From: a virus
Virus record (IMG/VR): IMGVR_UViG_3300009646_000070
DNA: 38,960 nucleotides
Strand: one strand, 5' to 3'
The translations under genes and the position numbers were made by a program. Positions within the stretch are counted from its first letter, which is position 1; the number at the start of each line of letters is the position of its first letter. The notes below the pieces were generated by a model. The model worked only from the letters and a program-made list of their open reading frames with translations, was not told the origin of the DNA and did no database searches. Below, one piece after another: positions 3,965 through 26,249 of the stretch.

Positions 3965-5922
3965 ATAGATTTGTCCTGTACTTGCGGCTCGACCGGGACG
4001 GCGGAGCCAATCGAAGGAACGCTATCACGTTGACGCATTTCCTCCGGCTTCACTTCACGGACTGTGGACGTACCCCCTTCCATGAATAGTGTCGTAGCTC
4101 CTCCCGGAGAGTACCGGCTCAAGTCTACGCGGGCTAGCATGTATGGCCCAAAGTTCTGTTCCTCCTCGACAAATCCTTCAAACTCATTTGCCTTAATAAC
4201 GCCGACGCGGTTGCGATGCAGGCAGATCATAGCATCAACGTTCTTTTCGATTGCGGCGGAGCCAGAGGCGTGTCGGCTAGCGACGATCTCATTGGCCTCG
4301 GGTCGGCGTGGTTGAATGACTAGAACGATGAACAGCCCAAGTTCCATGGCAGTAGCCTTGATGCGGGCACTGAGGTTGGAGATTTCTTGGGCTTGATGTT
4401 GGATGCTTTTGCACATCAACTGAAGGTTGTCCAGCACCATGAACTTGATTCCGTATCGGCGGACGGCTTGCCGGATTAGGTCAAAAACTTTTTCGGTGTC
4501 CTGCGGGTTAGTCTTTCCAAGCAGCAGGTCTGCCGTTCTTTGGCGCAAGACTTCTCTAGCCTTTTCGGTTGTCTCTTTCGTGTACTGGCTTCGCCCCGGT
4601 GTGTCATCGGTCTGTGTTACGTGGCAAACCCATTTACGAGCGATGCGACGCGGCGGCATCTCGAAGCACAAGAATAATCCCGGCTGATTTAGCTTCACTG
4701 TGAGGTAGTCGAACCAGTTCATGCAGAACGTAGTCTTACCGACCTTGCCCTCCGCAATGACTCCGCATACGTCGCCGTACTCATTTCCCCCGAGCACGAT
4801 GTCCAGCGATTTCCACGGCGTATCAATCGGCGCATCACTGGTCCCACGCTTGTCAATCTCGGCGTCGATCTCGTCCAGCGCCGTGAACATATCAGAGACG
4901 CCCGGCACTTCCAGCGGCTTTGCTTCGCTCTTCAACTGTGCGAAGTCTTCGGCGGTATGCCCGGCCTGAATCCATTCGCCAAGGTCCTTGCCGTCCTGCC
5001 CATCTTTGCGTTTGAAGGCGGGTAGTTTAATCAGCAGGCATTTCTCGATTCCGATGCGCTTGATGATTTCTGCGGCGGCGTCCTGCCCGGCCTTGTCAGA
5101 GTCGTACAAGATGTAGATTTGACGATGTGGGTCCGGCGCTAATGCCCGCTGGTCCCACCATACGTCTAGCCGGTCAATCCACGTAGCTTTCTTCATGTTC
5201 GCGCCGGGCACACCAAGTACATTGTCGTAGCCAAGGCTCATGAGTGAAATGCAATCGGCCTCTCCCTCGACGAGGATTAGCTCCGTGGTGTCGGAGTGAA
5301 TTACATCGGCGTGGTAGATCGGATTTTCGCGGCCTTTGGAGCCAAGGAATCGTGGTTCCTTGCTACCGTCCGGGCGTGTTTCGAGCCTATGCAAGGCACG
5401 CATCTTGGCGTACTGGTAGTTTCCGGCATTGATGTACGGATAGACTAGCCAGCGCCGGGCTTCATTGTTTACGCCTAGCAGAAGGCCGAGCTTCATACGC
5501 TTGATAACGTCCAATGAGAAGCCGCGCTCCGTGACGTAGCGGAATGCCTCGGCGTCATTCAGCAGGCGTTGATGACACTCTTCCAGCGGAGGCAGAGGCA
5601 GCGTTTCTCTTGGAACGGCGTCAAGCATGGAGCGAATTTCTACGCCGGGGATAGTCGCATCGCCTAGCTCTTTCTTGAGGCTTTTTAGCGTTCCTGACCG
5701 TCCGCATACTTTGCAGTCGAAAAGATAGTCCGGCTGGTTTTCCGGGTGGTTGGCGTTGACCTTCGGGTCCGTGCTGACGTAGAAGTGCTGCTCTTTCCCG
5801 CACAGCGGGCAATCAGTTAGAATCTGTGAGTCATTCGAGCACAGCTTGTGAGGCCAGCCCTTCGACTTCACGTAGACTAGCGCCTGAGATTCTTCGACCG
5901 GCATTGGTTCTTCGTAAGGCAT
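3961..5922 (-). CDS. Primase-helicase (Zn finger + TOPRIM + DnaB/T7 gp4-like helicase)
   Basis: N-terminal CPLC...CKVC; TOPRIM LVEGEADC and YDSDKAGQ; Walker A AEGKVGKT; MVLDNLQ; helicase motifs through HRNR. Confidence 0.9.
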   Translation of the reverse strand: MPYEEPMPVEESQALVYVKSKGWPHKLCSNDSQILTDCPLCGKEQHFYVSTDPKVNANHPENQPDYLFDCKVCGRSGTLKSLKKELGDATIPGVEIRSMLDAVPRETLPLPPLEECHQRLLNDAEAFRYVTERGFSLDVIKRMKLGLLLGVNNEARRWLVYPYINAGNYQYAKMRALHRLETRPDGSKEPRFLGSKGRENPIYHADVIHSDTTELILVEGEADCISLMSLGYDNVLGVPGANMKKATWIDRLDVWWDQRALAPDPHRQIYILYDSDKAGQDAAAEIIKRIGIEKCLLIKLPAFKRKDGQDGKDLGEWIQAGHTAEDFAQLKSEAKPLEVPGVSDMFTALDEIDAEIDKRGTSDAPIDTPWKSLDIVLGGNEYGDVCGVIAEGKVGKTTFCMNWFDYLTVKLNQPGLFLCFEMPPRRIARKWVCHVTQTDDTPGRSQYTKETTEKAREVLRQRTADLLLGKTNPQDTEKVFDLIRQAVRRYGIKFMVLDNLQLMCKSIQHQAQEISNLSARIKATAMELGLFIVLVIQPRRPEANEIVASRHASGSAAIEKNVDAMICLHRNRVGVIKANEFEGFVEEEQNFGPYMLARVDLSRYSPGGATTLFMEGGTSTVREVKPEEMRQRDSVPSIGSAVPVEPQVQDKSI

Positions 5923-6116
5923 TACGCTCCTTGGTTTTCAAAGTGTTCATCGCAAAGATGAATGGTTTCGTTTCCAGACTGTACTGTATGGTTCCCGTCT
6001 TTGTCGCATTGTTCGTACTGTGCTCCATTCAAAATGTTGGCCCGGCGCTCCGATGGTAGCGATTGTTGCGAGAAAAAGGTATAGGCTTCCGACCGTAAAT
6101 ACGTTCAACCAGTGGC

Positions 6117-6353
6117 TCATTTGTTTATCCTCAGCCCGAGTTTGCGCCGGAGCTTCCGGCACATGATCTCGAATTTTTCCCTAAGCTCATCGGTCTCGTT
6201 GGCGTAGATCGTGTGCGAGCCGATGCGGATAGCGTAGTGTGGGCCTTTCGGCGGAGCATCCTCAAGACGCGAGGCATACGAAGTAAAGTAGTTCCAGCGT
6301 TCCAAGCTGTTCATTACCGCCACTTGCTTTGCATTAAGACCTAGCAGCGCCAT
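6117..6353 (-). CDS. Hypothetical protein
   Basis: Likely true start MALLGLN (ATG 6353, purine-rich RBS AAGAAGGGGG) within the longer track ORF. Confidence 0.55.
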   Translation of the reverse strand: MALLGLNAKQVAVMNSLERWNYFTSYASRLEDAPPKGPHYAIRIGSHTIYANETDELREKFEIMCRKLRRKLGLRINK

Positions 6354-6457
6354 TGGACCCCCTTCTTTACCAGTAGAGGCCGGTGTTACCCGGCCCCACC
6401 CGGCTCCGCGTCGGCGTGACGAAGCATACACCCCAATCTTGCCCGTCGAAACCGTAA

Positions 6458-6586
6458 CAGGCCCACAATAATCAGCCATAATTTCCCTACGGTCATGGCA
6501 CGATGTTGTCTGTATACGCCTTGCTTTGCAACACACGTCTAAGAACTTGCCTAACAACTAGGGTATGGCTGATTATGGTGGACCTG
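6458..6586 (-). ncRNA. Predicted rod-shaped structured RNA closed by a 22-bp stem, directly downstream of the tmRNA
   Basis: 6565-6586 and 6458-6479 are inverted repeats (20/22); inner pairings CCCTA/TAGGG, GTTGT/ACAAC and a TTGC-AAA-GCAA hairpin. Confidence 0.45.
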
Positions 6587-6925
6587 CGGAGGCGGTGAAC
6601 GCCGTCCATTAAACTCGGTAGGGGAGTCCTTCGACTCCCCATCCTTGTATGCAAACTACGCATTTGCGTAAAGCACCTTCGTGTTTTTCGCAGTTAGTTT
6701 TGAGAGTTGATTTCGGAAGTCTCCCACTCCCGGCTCAAATAAGCGCCGTTTCCTCTTACCCCGGTCGATGCCATTATACCCCCGTATGGTGGAGGTAGAG
6801 AGAATCGAACTCTCGTGTCGTTGTATAGTCATACGGCCTGTTTATGAGCGTACTTTATAATAGCTCTCGGCGGACCAGAACGCCGGGCTACTGCCAGTAC
6901 CAAGGGGCCTCACGGCCTCCACCAT
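6576..6925 (-). ncRNA. ssrA: Circularly permuted (two-piece) tmRNA; tag AKNTKVLYANA*
   Basis: Acceptor piece ends GAGAG-TTCGATT-CTCTC-TACCTCC-A-CCA (3' end 6787). It is followed by TAC and then the coding-piece 5' end GGGGGTA-TAATGGCATCGAC (6783). The acceptor stem has G3:U70 and A73. PK1 (GGGAG/CTTCC, GGGAG/CTCTC) precedes TAACT-GCG; tag frame 6691-6656. Outer ends are approximate. Confidence 0.9.
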
Positions 6926-6938
6926 CTGATCTACCTAC

Positions 6939-6967
6939 AGGATAACACAACCCCTTGCTCAAGTCAA
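6939..6967 (-). promoter_or_regulatory. Sigma70-type promoter for the tmRNA
   Basis: TTGACT-N17-TATCCT with TG upstream of the -10. Confidence 0.75.
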
Positions 6968-8637
6968 GACTTTCTTAAAACTTTTGAAAGAGCAATTTGA
7001 GCCATTCCTTTAGTTATCCCTTGTGGAATAGGTATTCTAAATCTCCGTAAAAGTCTAAGTTGTGCAAGCGTAGCTTCATCTTTATGCCAACGCGCCTCTC
7101 GTCTCACCAGTGTCATTTCTTCGGGGCAAAGCAATCTTACAAATTCTTCAGCGATTCGGAGAGCTTCTGGCAAATCATTGATGTTATGTTCGTCAACATG
7201 ATTTATTTTTTCGCCCAATTGCCCACTTACATGCCATTTCTGTACAAGGTCTTCATACACATCTAGCCTACCGCTTTTCAAATATAGCATGTAATGGCCG
7301 TCTGTAGACTTATGCCACTGTAACTTTGATGCTCCAAGAATTTCTTCTGCCCATTTGAAAGAAAACAAATCGACGCTTACCGCGTAGCTTCTGAGCTTCA
7401 ACAGGTCTTGTGCGTCTTTCAGGTTGGCGTTCGGATGCTCTTCTTGAACCTTGTTGAAATAGTCCAGCGCCGCTGTTACTGTCCGCCCTTGCATGTCCAT
7501 GCGTTCCGACATACCGAAGAGTTTGGGGACTGTGATGAGCGAGTGCTTCGTAGTGGCGTCCACAACGTCCAGTAAGATGCAGTCTTCCTTTTTAATAGGC
7601 GTATTGTCGGCTCTGGCTTCAAGCAGATTATTGAGACCGTCCGGGATGCGCGTGCCCCGGCCTGTGCATTGGACGTAGAGGAGTTGGGACTTGGTTGGCC
7701 GGGCCATGACGATGCAGCCGATGTGCCAATCGTCGTATCCTTCGGTGAGGACGGCGCAGTTGCATAGAACTTTAATGGTTCCATTTCGCAGCGCCATAAG
7801 TTTAAAGGCCCGGTTGACATCCTCTCCCCATACGGCAGCCGCCGCGATTCCATGGGCTTGGAAAACAGCCGCCATTTGTTGAGAATGGCTAATTCCGACG
7901 CAGAAAACCAAGGTAGGTCGTCCTTGCGCTTTTTCGAGCCAGTGCTTGACGACAAGCTCATTCCGCTGAGAGTTGTTAACAGCATTTTCCAATTCATCTG
8001 TAGCAAAGTCGCCAGCGCGGGTATGTACTCCATCCAGCGATTGATCTGTTGTAATCTTGTAGCCTCGGAGGTTGACGAGCCACCCTTGTTTGATGGCATC
8101 GAGAATGCCCATCTGGTAAGTGACCTCTGAAAACACTTCGGCAAGGCCCTTTCCATCCGCACGATTAGGCGTAGCGGTAACTCCAACATGTAGGATGTGG
8201 CTCGTGTCGGCCAGCACTCCGAAGTACTGGTAAATGGTTTGGTAACTGTCTGCGATTGCATGATGAGCCTCGTCTGTGACTATGATTCCAAAGTCTTCCG
8301 GCCTCAGTGCTTGCAAGCGGTTTGAATTCGCCCGGCTGAGTGTGGGCACGCTACCGACTACAATCTGCGAATTGTTGTCGTCGCGCAGATAACCCATCTC
8401 AATTGCCACTGACAATTCAGGATTCCATTTCTTGATCTTGTCTGCGGCCTGCTGCGCAAGCTCCTCCCTATGCACTAGAACTAACATACGCTTATTTGGT
8501 ATCAGTCGGGGAAGATTCGCAAAAACTACAGTCTTACCGACGCCGGTAGGCATGGTAACCAATTGACGCTTCACGCCTAAATACCATTTGTTAGTGATCG
8601 CTTGGAGGGCATCGACTTGGTACGGACGCAGTTTCAT
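6964..8637 (-). CDS. SF2 DEAD/DEAH-box helicase (SSL2/Irc3-like)
   Basis: MKLRPYQ Q-motif, MPTGVGKT, LVHREELAQQ, VTDEAHH, GVTATPNRADG, LTEGYD, QCTGRGTR. Confidence 0.93.
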   Translation of the reverse strand: MKLRPYQVDALQAITNKWYLGVKRQLVTMPTGVGKTVVFANLPRLIPNKRMLVLVHREELAQQAADKIKKWNPELSVAIEMGYLRDDNNSQIVVGSVPTLSRANSNRLQALRPEDFGIIVTDEAHHAIADSYQTIYQYFGVLADTSHILHVGVTATPNRADGKGLAEVFSEVTYQMGILDAIKQGWLVNLRGYKITTDQSLDGVHTRAGDFATDELENAVNNSQRNELVVKHWLEKAQGRPTLVFCVGISHSQQMAAVFQAHGIAAAAVWGEDVNRAFKLMALRNGTIKVLCNCAVLTEGYDDWHIGCIVMARPTKSQLLYVQCTGRGTRIPDGLNNLLEARADNTPIKKEDCILLDVVDATTKHSLITVPKLFGMSERMDMQGRTVTAALDYFNKVQEEHPNANLKDAQDLLKLRSYAVSVDLFSFKWAEEILGASKLQWHKSTDGHYMLYLKSGRLDVYEDLVQKWHVSGQLGEKINHVDEHNINDLPEALRIAEEFVRLLCPEEMTLVRREARWHKDEATLAQLRLLRRFRIPIPQGITKGMAQIALSKVLRKS

Positions 8638-12534: not shown

Positions 12535-12730
12535 CCATCCTCTTCAGCTTAGCTTGCAGTTTTTCTACACGATGTTCGATACGAGAAACCCATACAGTAC
12601 CAGAACGTTTCCATCCATGTGTCTCCCAAAAACAGGCCTCGTGTAGCCTAGCTTTCAGGCGCTCACGCCTGACGTAGTTTTTGATGATGGCCAACAGCGC
12701 ATTCTGCGTTAGGGGTTTAGACTTCGTCAT
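12521..12730 (-). CDS. Hypothetical protein
   Basis: RBS GGAG before MTKSKPL; overlaps the RNA ligase end. Confidence 0.55.
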   Translation of the reverse strand: MTKSKPLTQNALLAIIKNYVRRERLKARLHEACFWETHGWKRSGTVWVSRIEHRVEKLQAKLKRMDENY

Positions 12731-13949
12731 TGGACTCCTCCGCGTGATAGGTGCCCTGTGAGAAGAATTCTGCCCGCGCCGGACGCAGTATCTTCCAAAT
12801 AACTTTGGCGTAGTCCTTTCCATCGTACATCAAAAACAGTACAGGCGCTAGGAATATCATTTCGGGGCCTTCCGCCGGATGCTGCATCAACACCTGCTGT
12901 TTGAAAAACTCGGCCACGGCCTTGCGATTCCAATCTCCCCGGCTTCCGGCGATGCGAGCTAGCGCGATGCTCTCCTGCTCGATGTACTTGAACATCAGCG
13001 TGTAATATGCAATCTTGCCGGTCAGCCATTCGGTGAACTCAGGCGGAGTGAACGGAGTCAACGAGGCAACATCAATAGTCTTGCCTTGGCTCAGCGTCTC
13101 CCACACATCACGGTTCGTCATCCCAAACATCGCCCGGTGACTCAGCTTGTAGTTCTCGAACTTGATTTTGACGCGCAGAGGAGCCTTGTGAGGAATCGCC
13201 AGCGACCAGTTCAAAGGTTCCGACTCCTTCAATCGGATGTAGCCTCCGTGCGAAAGGAATTTAGCTACGTATCCTTCGCGGTTTTTGTCGTTCTCTTCCG
13301 CACACTGTGCAACAGTCTTGGTAAACAGGGGCACGAGTTCCAGACCGAAGTATCGTCCGTTGTCGAACGCCATTTCTTCGTAGGCCAACTCTTCGCCGGT
13401 CTCTTTGTAAATCACTGCGAAGAGCACCAGAGACTCGCGTTTGCCGTAGTCTACTACGATCTGGTTGCCCGGCATGATGATCTCCACCAGCAACGTTTGA
13501 TGGCGCGGCATCTGGAAGCAGGGCAGAGCTTGCAGGAAGGCAGTAGCCCACTTCGCTTGCTCGCTGTCGAAGGACCCGCGAGTCGCCACTTCCGGCGGAT
13601 TGTCCTTGTACTGGAAAATGACGCCCATGCTTCCGTCCATCTTCTCGGTGATCTCGATCTTGTTCTTGAGAGGATTCAACGGAAGGTTGTCCAGCATCGT
13701 CTCCGGGTAGCGCGTATCATTGATGTTGAAGAAGGCTTCCATTGGCCGGGCCACGATCTCCCCGGTCTCCCGGTCCACAATCAAACCACGGCAGCGGCGG
13801 AGCGTAACATCGTCATGCGTCTTCGTCATCGCTTCGCTCGTATAGTTGTATATGTCTAAAGGCCATTTGGGATGAGGGCGTTTAGAAACAAGCCCGTTAG
13901 AAACTCCTCCTTCTAGCTCATTTGCATCGACATATTGATTAAGTAGCAT
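12717..13949 (-). CDS. RNA ligase, T4 Rnl1-like
   Basis: RCRGLIVD...IVARP..AFFN, motif I TEKMDGS, ATRGSF.SEQA, EII.P.NQIVVDYG, EGYV, RVKIK..NY; RBS GGAGG before MLLNQ. Confidence 0.9.
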   Translation of the reverse strand: MLLNQYVDANELEGGVSNGLVSKRPHPKWPLDIYNYTSEAMTKTHDDVTLRRCRGLIVDRETGEIVARPMEAFFNINDTRYPETMLDNLPLNPLKNKIEITEKMDGSMGVIFQYKDNPPEVATRGSFDSEQAKWATAFLQALPCFQMPRHQTLLVEIIMPGNQIVVDYGKRESLVLFAVIYKETGEELAYEEMAFDNGRYFGLELVPLFTKTVAQCAEENDKNREGYVAKFLSHGGYIRLKESEPLNWSLAIPHKAPLRVKIKFENYKLSHRAMFGMTNRDVWETLSQGKTIDVASLTPFTPPEFTEWLTGKIAYYTLMFKYIEQESIALARIAGSRGDWNRKAVAEFFKQQVLMQHPAEGPEMIFLAPVLFLMYDGKDYAKVIWKILRPARAEFFSQGTYHAEESNDEV

Positions 13950-14334
13950 GTAACCTCCGAAGATGCAATGCACGTTTCTTCCATTGATGATTCCAACATA
14001 GAGTTTGAAGCCCTTTTTGACGCTCTCTATGGAAGAGCCAAGAATACAACTTCGAGCCATGCATTTGGCCTTTGCGTCGTTGGTATGCGCCATCGTTGTT
14101 GACATGATCTAATGTCAACATATCTAAATCGATTTGGCTACATCCACGCCAACAACATTTTGCTTCTCCGTCCTTTCCGTAACGAGCTAGAACAATGTTC
14201 TTTGTTTGTCGCTGGTGTCTGAAGTTTATTCGGCAGCGAGAGGCTTTTCCTTTAGATGTTCGGAGATATTTTTTCTGTGCGGCTTTTCCTTTAATGCCAC
14301 CATTGTATTTTCTAACTGTTTCTTTTCTGTTCAT
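13939..14334 (-). CDS. HNH-like endonuclease, family A copy 1
   Basis: KCCWRGC...DLDMLTLDHVNNDG...LQTLCWNHQWKK; AT-rich. Confidence 0.75.
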   Translation of the reverse strand: MNRKETVRKYNGGIKGKAAQKKYLRTSKGKASRCRINFRHQRQTKNIVLARYGKDGEAKCCWRGCSQIDLDMLTLDHVNNDGAYQRRKGQMHGSKLYSWLFHRERQKGLQTLCWNHQWKKRALHLRRLHAT

Positions 14335-24320: not shown

Positions 24321-24378
24321 CCGGGCTTACAACCGGCCTGCCGCATTAAACCCGCACAGTATGCGGGTTCCGTCTGCG
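24321..24378 (-). ncRNA. Twister ribozyme 2 (T1 pseudoknot mismatched)
   Basis: CGCA-GA-CGG-AACCCGCA-TACTG-TGCGGGTT-TAA-TGCG-GC-AG-GCCGG-T-TGT-AAG-CCCGG. Confidence 0.75.
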
Positions 24379-25011
24379 TTAATGGATATAATATGATACA
24401 TTCTTAACTGTGTTTGACCAGCAAGCACGGCATGTATCACAACGTCCACCTTGATTGGGAGCCGGACATGCAAAGCCGATAGGAGCGGAATAACGCTGTA
24501 CAGTAGAGGTTGTTAATTGAGTAAGGCCCTTTGGCTTGCAACCATGATCTATGATATAAGCTGACAACCGGATTGTCAGGTTAGTAGGGATTGTTCCACC
24601 CTCAGCAAGAAATTTTCTCACTACATTAAACTCCTTGGTGGGCATCCAATGCTGGCACCAAGGGGTTGCATTAACAAGAGAAATTATCTGCCGTAGATGT
24701 GCTACGCTCTGAAGATCGCCTGCATCATGCCATCTAAAGTACGACTTGCCTTTTAACATTGTAACCATAGCCTCTTGCCATTGTGGATGCTGAAGTGCTT
24801 TCAATTTGAAAGCACGAAAAGGATCAACATTTTTTGCAAAAGCTTTTGCATAGCCCTTCCTTGCATAGCAATGAGCGCAAGGCGAGTTAGGATTACTGCG
24901 GAGAGTTTTTCCCACATGGCAGGAATCACAGGGCAGTGTGTATGACCCGCACGGCAACTTATTGTTAACGTAAATCTTTCCTACAATCTTTTCAGCTTGT
25001 TTCTTAGTCAT
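24379..25011 (-). CDS. Phage GP88-like Cys-rich protein
   Basis: C..C.VG..L...PNSPC..CYARKG, FRWHD.GDLQS, HWMPTKE, NLTIRLS, CPAP.QGG.C..CRACW; RBS AGGAGG. Confidence 0.8.
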   Translation of the reverse strand: MTKKQAEKIVGKIYVNNKLPCGSYTLPCDSCHVGKTLRSNPNSPCAHCYARKGYAKAFAKNVDPFRAFKLKALQHPQWQEAMVTMLKGKSYFRWHDAGDLQSVAHLRQIISLVNATPWCQHWMPTKEFNVVRKFLAEGGTIPTNLTIRLSAYIIDHGCKPKGLTQLTTSTVQRYSAPIGFACPAPNQGGRCDTCRACWSNTVKNVSYYIH

Positions 25012-25025
25012 GTTCCTCCTAATTG

Positions 25026-25106
25026 CCGGGCTTACAACCGGCCTGCCGCATTACAACACTCATAGACTAGGACACGCTAGCCAGTGTATAGATACTGTGT
25101 TCTGCG
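25026..25106 (-). ncRNA. Twister ribozyme 3
   Basis: CGCA-GA-ACA-[P1]-TAA-TGCG-GC-AG-GCCGG-T-TGT-AAG-CCCGG. Confidence 0.87.
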
Positions 25107-25110
25107 AATG

Positions 25111-25431
25111 CTAATCCCACCAAAGACGAAGTTTTCCACCAATTATGTTGTATTCATCTTCCCCAAGCTCGTGTTCTTCAATAGAGTTTGGTTCGACATA
25201 AACACACACACTGTATTCGCGGGCAAGCAAAACGTCGCCTTTGATGCGTCCTAACAAGTCCGCTGTAAAGTTGTTATAGCCATCCGGGACAGCCTTTGCC
25301 ATGATCTTAACTGCCACGTCGGACGGCACACTTTGAAATGCACGAAAATGAAGATTACGTGTTTCTTCAGTATATGCAGCAATTACTTCATCTGCCACAG
25401 TTTTGTACTTATTTGGTATCCTTGTAACCAT
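25111..25431 (-). CDS. Hypothetical phage protein
   Basis: RBS GGAGGTG; ends LRLWWD; lies between twisters 4 and 3. Confidence 0.7.
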   Translation of the reverse strand: MVTRIPNKYKTVADEVIAAYTEETRNLHFRAFQSVPSDVAVKIMAKAVPDGYNNFTADLLGRIKGDVLLAREYSVCVYVEPNSIEEHELGEDEYNIIGGKLRLWWD

Positions 25432-25448
25432 GTATCACCTCCGCGTAG

Positions 25449-25533
25449 CCGGGCTTGTAACCGGCTTGCCGCATTATCGCACCCGCCATGAATTATACGC
25501 CTAGTAGTAGAGGCTAAGGTGCGTCACTCTGCG
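25449..25533 (-). ncRNA. Twister ribozyme 4
   Basis: CGCA-GA-GTG-[P1 CGCACC/GGTGCG]-TAA-TGCG-GC-AA-GCCGG-T-TAC-AAG-CCCGG. Confidence 0.87.
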
Positions 25534-25544
25534 AACTCTATGAC

Positions 25545-25670
25545 TTACTTAGTATATTTCTTCCCTGTCTCTGCAAATATTTCGCCTCTCAGGGTTGCTT
25601 CATCGAAACGTGGATACTGGCAGGGAAATGCTTTCGTTCTCCATGTATCCTTTGTTGTATCTGTTTTCAT
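25545..25670 (-). CDS. 41-aa hypothetical protein
   Basis: MKTDTTKDTWRTKAFPCQYPRFDEATLRGEIFAETGKKYTK*; only ORF between twisters 5 and 4. Confidence 0.5.
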   Translation of the reverse strand: MKTDTTKDTWRTKAFPCQYPRFDEATLRGEIFAETGKKYTK

Positions 25671-25691
25671 AAATCACCCTATGATACGTGG

Positions 25692-25771
25692 CCGGGCTTG
25701 TCACCGGCCTGCCGCATTAAGGCGGGGCATACCGCAACATCTTGTATGCCGGACTCCGCCTTGACTCTGCG
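25692..25771 (-). ncRNA. Twister ribozyme 5
   Basis: CGCA-GA-GTC-[P1 AGGCGG/CCGCCT]-TAA-TGCG-GC-AG-GCCGG-T-GAC-AAG-CCCGG. Confidence 0.88.
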
Positions 25772-25842
25772 CTATTTCCGAATCTCCAACAGCGTGCCAT
25801 CGGGTCCAAATCGACCGCGATACAATCGTGGCCGGGCATAGG

Positions 25843-26166
25843 CTACCTCACTTTCACCACGATGCCGTTCTTCAATTCGGCCTGCGCATACCACGTATGC
25901 GCCGCAGGAGGATACGTTCCGCTATACGTTGGTGGTTGCGGCCGGGCTGCCCAATAGTGTGGACCTTCCAAGCAAGTCGTGCCTTCAGTTGGTTCGTTGC
26001 CACCAAATGGTCCGGGCTGATAGATGCGCACAGGACGCGCCAGTGCAGCTTCGGGGCCAACAGTAAGAGCAAACACCGGATCGGCGATTGCTTTCAAATG
26101 ATCGTTCCAGTTTTTCACGGCTTCCTTGAGTTGCTTTTTCGTTTTGAAATTGATTGTAGTATACAC
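25843..26166 (-). CDS. Conserved-looking phage hypothetical protein
   Basis: GTG start, RBS GAGGT; YTTINFKTKKQLKEAV...YQPGPFG...LEGPHY...HTWYAQA.LKNG.VVKV. Confidence 0.7.
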   Translation of the reverse strand: MYTTINFKTKKQLKEAVKNWNDHLKAIADPVFALTVGPEAALARPVRIYQPGPFGGNEPTEGTTCLEGPHYWAARPQPPTYSGTYPPAAHTWYAQAELKNGIVVKVR

Positions 26167-26191
26167 GGGCCACCTCAGCGGTTTTAAATTG

Positions 26192-26249
26192 CCGGGCTTC
26201 GGACCGGCTAGCCGCATTAGACCCGCACAGTATGCGGGTGCCGTCTGCG
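26192..26249 (-). ncRNA. Twister ribozyme 6
   Basis: CGCA-GA-CGG-C-ACCCGCA-TACTG-TGCGGGT-C-TAA-TGCG-GC-TA-GCCGG-T-CCG-AAG-CCCGG; T1 CGG/CCG. Confidence 0.88.

Follow-up and report, generated by a model that had tools for sequence, protein, structure and literature searches.

A 38,960-nt stretch of viral DNA (IMG/VR record IMGVR_UViG_3300009646_000070; hereafter the window) carries on its minus strand, at positions 6849-6617, what is probably a functional phage tmRNA gene of the permuted, short-spacer type (copy 1), which lies inside an older tmRNA locus and is followed downstream by a decayed copy (copy 2). The permuted tmRNA model of Rfam (RF04321, tmRNA_permuted) matches 6849-6656 (-) over its full length (model positions 1-213) with 64.8 bits, above the cut-off of 47 (E 2e-10). 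This search had been proposed as a check by the original prediction, which had recognized a phage-encoded circularly permuted tmRNA in the letters of the DNA, and the reading is borne out by the score, by the order of the elements in the sequence and by an agreeing fold. Within the gene, the T arm and the 3′ acceptor strand with its CCA precede the 5′ strand with the D-region analogue (6814-6764; sequence and RF04321 alignment), which is the permuted order.

Copy 1 is located wholly on the minus strand and can be divided into two pieces. The acceptor piece (6849-6787), delimited by the RF04321 alignment, the fold and covariation in 11 permuted tmRNAs, comprises the 5′ strands of the P2 helices (GCUCA, 6849-6845, and GCCGU, 6837-6833), a T arm read from the sequence (GAGAG-TTCGATT-CTCTC, 6814-6798), the 3′ acceptor strand TACCTCC (6797-6791), A73 at 6790 and the CCA at 6789-6787. 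An intervening segment of three nucleotides, TAC (6786-6784), separates it from the coding piece (6783-6617; RF04321 and sub-threshold RF01850 alignments, and fold), which contains the 5′ strand GGGGGTA (6783-6777), the D-region analogue TAATGGCATCGAC (6776-6764), the 3′ strands of P2 (ACGGC, 6749-6745, and UGAGC, 6737-6733), PK1 (6732-6702), the tag frame, a stop-codon hairpin (6667-6651) and a terminal hairpin (6640-6621). The 3-nt TAC between a CCA ending at 6787 and GGGGGTA was thus read correctly at the outset, as it is seen in the sequence and the acceptor-pairing script returns the same spacer of 3 nt, with all seven acceptor pairs formed between GGGGGUA and UACCUCC. The predicted 7-bp stem with the G3:U70 pair and A73 is likewise confirmed by script and sequence, and the G:U pair is invariant in 11 genes. 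What closes this stem is, however, a loop of seven nucleotides (ACCA plus UAC) and not one of three, as had been assumed. The extent originally given (6576-6967, with a length of about 350 nt) also needs correction, since 6616-6576 belongs to the second, degenerate permuted tmRNA, and position 6576, at which that interval ended, is the CCA of copy 2.

The inter-piece helices ACGGC/GCCGT and TGAGC/GCTCA that had been proposed are recovered both by the structure line of RF04321, which pairs GCUCA with UGAGC and GCCG with CGGC as the P2 helices, and by the fold. Among the lineage-specific Rfam models, the betaproteobacterial one (RF01850) fits copy 1 best, yet its 35.8 bits stay below the cut-off of 84, so that copy 1, which can be aligned over the whole of this model, is described here as similar in architecture and is not filed as a member. 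The minimum free energy (MFE) structure of 6851-6615 has -77.7 kcal/mol (z -3.97), a value reached by none of 200 shuffled sequences, and this unconstrained fold contains the acceptor stem, the T arm, P2, the PK1 hairpin, the stop-codon hairpin and the terminal hairpin, with the stop codon placed in the loop of a GCAAA/UUUGC stem. Acceptor, T-arm and P2 pairs covary in 11 short-spacer permuted tmRNAs, in which G3:U70 does not change; in P2, for example, GCUCA/UGAGC of the window is replaced by GCUCG/CGAGC in the phage locus L083. The earlier claim that PK1 is present holds for its hairpin, CGGGAG/CUUCCG, which is predicted by the fold, while the pairing of its loop with downstream sequence (GGGAG/CUCUC) was picked out by eye and is a candidate; at the same place the related locus L041 has GGAAA/UUUCC, a covariation that was also noted by eye. 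When the RNA is notionally cut, cofolding predicts a two-piece duplex with 25 intermolecular pairs, which is favored over the isolated pieces by 17.5 kcal/mol.

The tag frame extends from GCG 6691 to TAG 6656 and encodes, in 11 codons followed by the stop, AKNTKVLYANA. It is aligned to the tag region of RF04321, in agreement with the resumption at GCG that had been proposed, and it ends in ANA, compared with the usual AA. The tag appears homologous to the one that ARAGORN calls in L041 (ANTKVMYATA), from which it differs by three synonymous changes, two conservative replacements (L/M and N/T) and the insertion or deletion of one codon. As the changes are mostly synonymous or conservative, they suggest that the tag peptide is under selection, with the proviso that eleven codons are few.

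ARAGORN in tmRNA mode, the other program named for checking the prediction, did not call copy 1 in the window, while it did call L041, L083, L077, L079, L075 and L059. The length of the spacer was considered as a reason for this miss and was ruled out by a control in which the spacer of a bacterial gene (from a Rhodocyclaceae MAG) was cut stepwise from 4 to 0 nt: all shortened versions were still called, down to 0 nt, so that, judged from this bacterial gene, spacer length is not the cause of the missed call. Neither the tmRNA locus nor a beta-type phage tmRNA gave a match by blastn against 50,697 GenBank phage records, and a scan of IMG/VR for the exact acceptor stem of copy 1 found none.

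A pattern scan of IMG/VR for CCACCA followed by a gap and a 5′ strand returned permuted tmRNAs of beta type whose spacers measure 4, 5 and 6 nt, some of them in clearly phage-like contigs with genes for endolysin, PhoH and HNH endonucleases and with tRNA arrays. A second IMG/VR scan, restricted to gaps of 0-3 nt, yielded ten loci, for which the true spacers were taken from acceptor pairing: 0 nt in L075 and L078, 1 nt in L076, L080 and L082, and 3 nt in L074 (TAC), L077 and L081 (TGA), L079 (TGA) and L083 (TGC). Of the ten, eight are recognized by ARAGORN as permuted tmRNAs and given plausible tags; L077 and L079 are flanked by genes for portal protein, terminase and head protease. The uniqueness that had been implied for the 3-nt spacer does not hold, as phage contigs contain spacers of 0, 1, 3, 4 and 5 nt; its length of 3 nt is a feature that members of a phage lineage have in common, rather than a peculiarity of this one gene. 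Among the matches listed, which form a biased sample of at least 106 distinct genes, the spacers fall into a short group of about 0-8 nt, with maxima at 4 and 5 nt, and a long group of about 25-33 nt. Several further candidates (L016, L025, L033 and most of L046-L064) were discarded, since they proved to be standard tmRNAs, cyanobacterial genes without an encoded CCA, or fortuitous hits in coding DNA. In L075 (6941-7101), and also in L078, the CCA is joined straight to G1, with CAGCUCC-ACCA directly followed by GGGGCUG, and the ARAGORN tag of L075 is ANDAVYELAA; in such 0-nt genes one cleavage by RNase P would suffice to generate the two mature ends. In L083, a viral contig of 23.6 kb, 27 tRNA genes (4651-7912) are located directly downstream of the permuted tmRNA with the 3-nt spacer.

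Among bacteria, each species was represented by one genome and scanned with a pattern that demanded GGGG and AWTGG and hence was not exhaustive; the only true spacers no longer than 4 nt came from Rhodocyclaceae/Propionivibrio, and each of these measured exactly 4 nt. In three Rhodocyclaceae genomes the gene with the 4-nt spacer is the sole tmRNA gene found (RF01850, 200-220 bits), and no standard tmRNA in these genomes reaches the cut-off, from which it follows that a 4-nt spacer is evidently workable.

Downstream of copy 1, a permissive search with RF04321 gave a weak second match at 6633-6420 (-) (19.5 bits, E 0.095), which, together with the comparison to L041, outlines a relic permuted tmRNA at 6633-6410 (-). 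It has a short T-like hairpin (6603-6591), a 3′ strand CAGGUCC (6586-6580) and ACCA (6579-6576), then a rod-shaped spacer of 111 nt (6575-6465), the 5′ strand GGGCCUG (6464-6458), a D-region UUACGGUUUCGAC (6457-6445) and the 3′ strand of P2. Its acceptor stem has 7 bp with G3:U70, and the same acceptor pair occurs unchanged in L083, in L157 and in the 96-kb relative L040. In the fold, the spacer of 111 nt adopts the shape of a long and almost perfectly paired rod, which continues the acceptor stem by way of ACCA; a BLAST search with this rod (6465-6575) gave no second copy, either within the window or in the loci that were compared. PK1 and the tag are deleted at 6410/6409, the junction at which L041 has 81 extra nucleotides with both elements. 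A one-piece tmRNA assembled from the 5′ strand of copy 1 and the 3′ strand of copy 2 was also considered and was rejected, as these strands are not complementary.

The origin of this arrangement can be read from L041 and L042, two loci from peat metagenomes whose helicase is 90% identical to that of the window. The segment 6466-6410 of the window (5′ strand, D-region and 3′ strand of P2) matches, with 91% identity, the 5′ half of the tmRNA that is intact in L041, and 6409-6115, that is all of the downstream sequence, shares 93% identity with L041, with collinear flanks. Between these blocks L041 has a single, clean, permuted tmRNA (RF04321, 79.6 bits) with a canonical T arm and a hairpin spacer of 25 nt, and where L041 has 97 nt the window has 401 (6867-6467). 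The shared blocks and the single intact gene of L041 indicate that copy 2 corresponds to the resident tmRNA gene of this phage group. By this comparison, copy 2 appears to be the decayed resident gene, with its T arm altered and its coding part lost, and copy 1 appears to be an insertion that separates this older gene from its leader. The tandem layout is seen in one metagenome contig, and the flanks examined of L043 (a 62% helicase relative), L044 and L045 contain no tmRNA.

A promoter of its own had been postulated for the gene, and a consensus scan indeed finds a sigma70-like promoter at 6967-6939 (-) (TTGACT, 17 nt, TATCCT, with a TG before the -10 box). L041 keeps a promoter at the same site (TTGACT-17-TATACT), within a block of 91% identity, and the -10 box of the window is the weaker of the two. 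The promoter is followed by a structured leader (6935-6868, -) that is conserved in L041 (BLAST of 6968-6868 against L041 6393-6493, 91%; folds) and is inherited from the older tmRNA gene. At the other end of the locus, a 3′ hairpin (GGCCGG-GUAACA-CCGGCC) and the tail CUCUACUGG of the ancestral tmRNA gene are preserved at 6409-6370 (-), with 93% identity to L041 from 6729 onward; the tail can pair with the leader segment GGUGGAGGCC (6923-6914), and this long-range helix is seen in a fold of 571 nt. The leader has a further complementarity. Its segment AUGGUGGAGG (6925-6916) is a perfect 10-nt complement of CCUCCACCAU (6795-6786), the 3′ acceptor strand and CCA of copy 1, and is also complementary over 7-8 nt to the corresponding part of copy 2 and of L041. 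The pairing of the overlapping GGUGGAGGCC with the 3′ tail, at GGCCUCUACU (6372-6381), is an alternative to this and can enclose both copies.

The first protein gene downstream is an ORF of 78 codons (6353-6117, -) with a strong ribosome-binding site, which is conserved in L041 and matches no Pfam family; the mechanical ORF of 146 aa at 6117-6557 overstates it. Directly upstream of the tmRNA lies an SF2 helicase gene, and the window as a whole represents a phage replication module with a RecA/UvsX-like protein, a primase-helicase, a PD-(D/E)XK nuclease, a DNA ligase, GroEL and ten tRNAs. The same module, with its tRNA arrays and tmRNA, includes a T4 Rnl1-like RNA ligase (PF09511, phrog_562; 12717-14105, -), which suggests a capacity for tRNA repair. 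Four matches to type-P5 twister ribozymes, above the Rfam cut-off, are found between small genes at 24321-26249 (-). In L041, about 1.2 kb with small ORFs (5169-6392) that is absent from the window separates the helicase gene from the tmRNA promoter. A more distant relative, with a helicase 42% identical to that of the window, is a complete 96-kb virus with terminal repeats and a permuted tmRNA of its own. The absence of smpB from the window, as noted originally, was confirmed with Pfam in 20 window ORFs, and no SmpB is found in this 96-kb relative (G001) either; the SmpB of the host is the presumed partner.

Several other explanations of the locus were weighed against a working copy 1. The RNA could stay uncut at its tiny spacer, with the CCA buried in the loop and unchargeable, and act as a decoy, titrating the SmpB of the host and thereby inhibiting host trans-translation. 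The very short spacer and the 72 CDS-less permuted forms present in the database (PMC11915505) would fit such a role, but a decoy needs no tag frame, PK1 or stop-codon hairpin, all of which are kept, with a tag that evolves conservatively; moreover, a 7-nt loop is sterically ordinary, and processing must occur in bacteria in which a gene with a 4-nt spacer is the sole tmRNA gene found, which makes this explanation unlikely. It is very unlikely that copy 1 is a recent non-functional acquisition or a decaying copy in a phage that relies on the tmRNA of its host: the missed ARAGORN call, the odd tag ending, the weak -10 box and the low lineage-specific Rfam score would be expected from such a gene, but every helix and identity element is intact, and comparison with L083 and L041 reveals compensatory changes by which pairing is preserved in P2, in PK1 and in the acceptor stem.

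For the region downstream of copy 1, the decayed resident gene has to be compared with two further possibilities. The segment 6633-6410 might be a working part, either as a tRNA-like domain without coding region that modulates SmpB, or, in the shape of a rod, as an RNase III site or a passenger RNA by which the 3′ end of copy 1 is set. Its perfect acceptor stem with G3:U70 and ACCA, the strong rod formed by the 111-nt spacer and the replacement of the T arm by a tidy 4-bp hairpin rather than by scrambled sequence lend this some appeal, and it is regarded as a possibility, albeit a doubtful one, given that the segment no longer has the canonical T arm or the P2 pairing next to it, both of which are retained in L041, L083, L157 and L040, that PK1 and the tag are cleanly deleted, that RF04321 scores just 19.5 bits and that no second genome has the same form. 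An artefact of metagenome assembly, by which two strain variants were joined, could be suspected from the occurrence of the tandem in one contig and from the single gene of the relative with the 90% identical helicase; however, the two copies are too different for collapsed or expanded strain variants, copy 2 has features of its own (the 111-nt spacer and the 81-nt deletion) and the flanks are collinear with L041, so that this origin is highly improbable.

Two-piece tmRNAs of phages have been documented before, and 53 of 133 unique phage tmRNA structures are permuted (PMC9004378). The OM43 phage Melnitz and the pelagimyophages resemble the present case as lytic phages with a complete permuted ssrA and without smpB, while these phages are marine and their tmRNAs, of the alpha type, are associated with a glutamine riboswitch, and spacer length is not discussed in that study (PMC9004378); the window differs by its soil setting, its 3-nt spacer and the adjoining relic copy. 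By sequence, the closest relative of copy 1 in acceptor piece and P2 is L083 (IMGVR_UViG_3300036766_000125), which shares the 3-nt spacer (TGC, compared with TAC in the window), the compact body and the phage context, but has an acceptor stem, GGGCCUG/CAGGUCC, that differs from GGGGGUA/UACCUCC of the window in four pairs, fully compensatory, and a tag of 27 residues that ends in MAA. L041 and L042 correspond to the window in locus, promoter, leader and downstream gene, have a homologous tag and are orthologous to copy 2, whereas they possess a single intact gene with a 25-nt hairpin spacer, no copy 1, and PK1 and tag retained. The two-piece tmRNAs of Rhodocyclaceae/Propionivibrio (RF01850; L056, L059 and L065) are likewise permuted and compact, with a 4-nt spacer, a terminal hairpin and G3:U70, but they are chromosomal and the sole tmRNA gene found, score 200-220 bits with RF01850 as opposed to 35.8 for the window, and carry the tag ANDERFALAA. 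Forms of tmRNA that lack the CDS or consist of the tRNA-like domain only are also known (PMC11915505; PMC4131195). Copy 2, with an Ala-type acceptor stem and a D-region analogue but no tag frame, resembles such forms, examples of which are that of mycobacteriophage DS6A and the 72 database entries labeled "permuted, no CDS" (PMC4131195; PMC11915505); it differs from them in that the canonical T arm is missing as well and in that it is, by comparison with L041, a deletion derivative and not a conserved form.

Permuted tmRNA genes are generally matured by cleavage into two pieces by tRNA-processing enzymes (PMC11915505), and a corresponding route can be proposed for copy 1. Transcription from the promoter at 6967-6939 would generate a long precursor, in which the segment formed by T arm, 3′ strand and ACCA would pair with the downstream 5′ strand to give the 7-bp stem and its 7-nt ACCAUAC loop. 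RNase P of the host would then cut 5′ of G6783 and host 3′ exonucleases would trim UAC back to the CCA, with the acceptor and coding pieces held together by the acceptor stem and the P2 helices. AlaRS would presumably charge the RNA through G3:U70 and A73, and with SmpB and EF-Tu of the host it could enter stalled ribosomes, on which resumption at GCG 6691 would add AKNTKVLYANA. A more far-reaching interpretation, which is offered only tentatively, is that the phage genes with spacers of 0-3 nt (3 nt in the window, L083, L077, L079 and L074, 1 nt in L076 and L080, 0 nt in L075) represent an undescribed variant of maturation with one RNase P cut and trimming of no more than 3 nt, that the gene of the window has been caught replacing a resident gene with a long spacer, and that the leftover domain and rod are perhaps kept as a processing site or as a modulator of SmpB.

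The current understanding of tmRNA is not overturned by the locus, which adds an example from a soil phage to the known two-piece tmRNAs of phages. The tandem, in which one gene is intact and the other gutted, would provide, together with a relative that retains the older gene only, a snapshot of tmRNA replacement in a phage genome, and the zero-length spacers make it a testable question whether RNase P can cleave an RNA in which the 3′ CCA tail itself serves as the 5′ leader.
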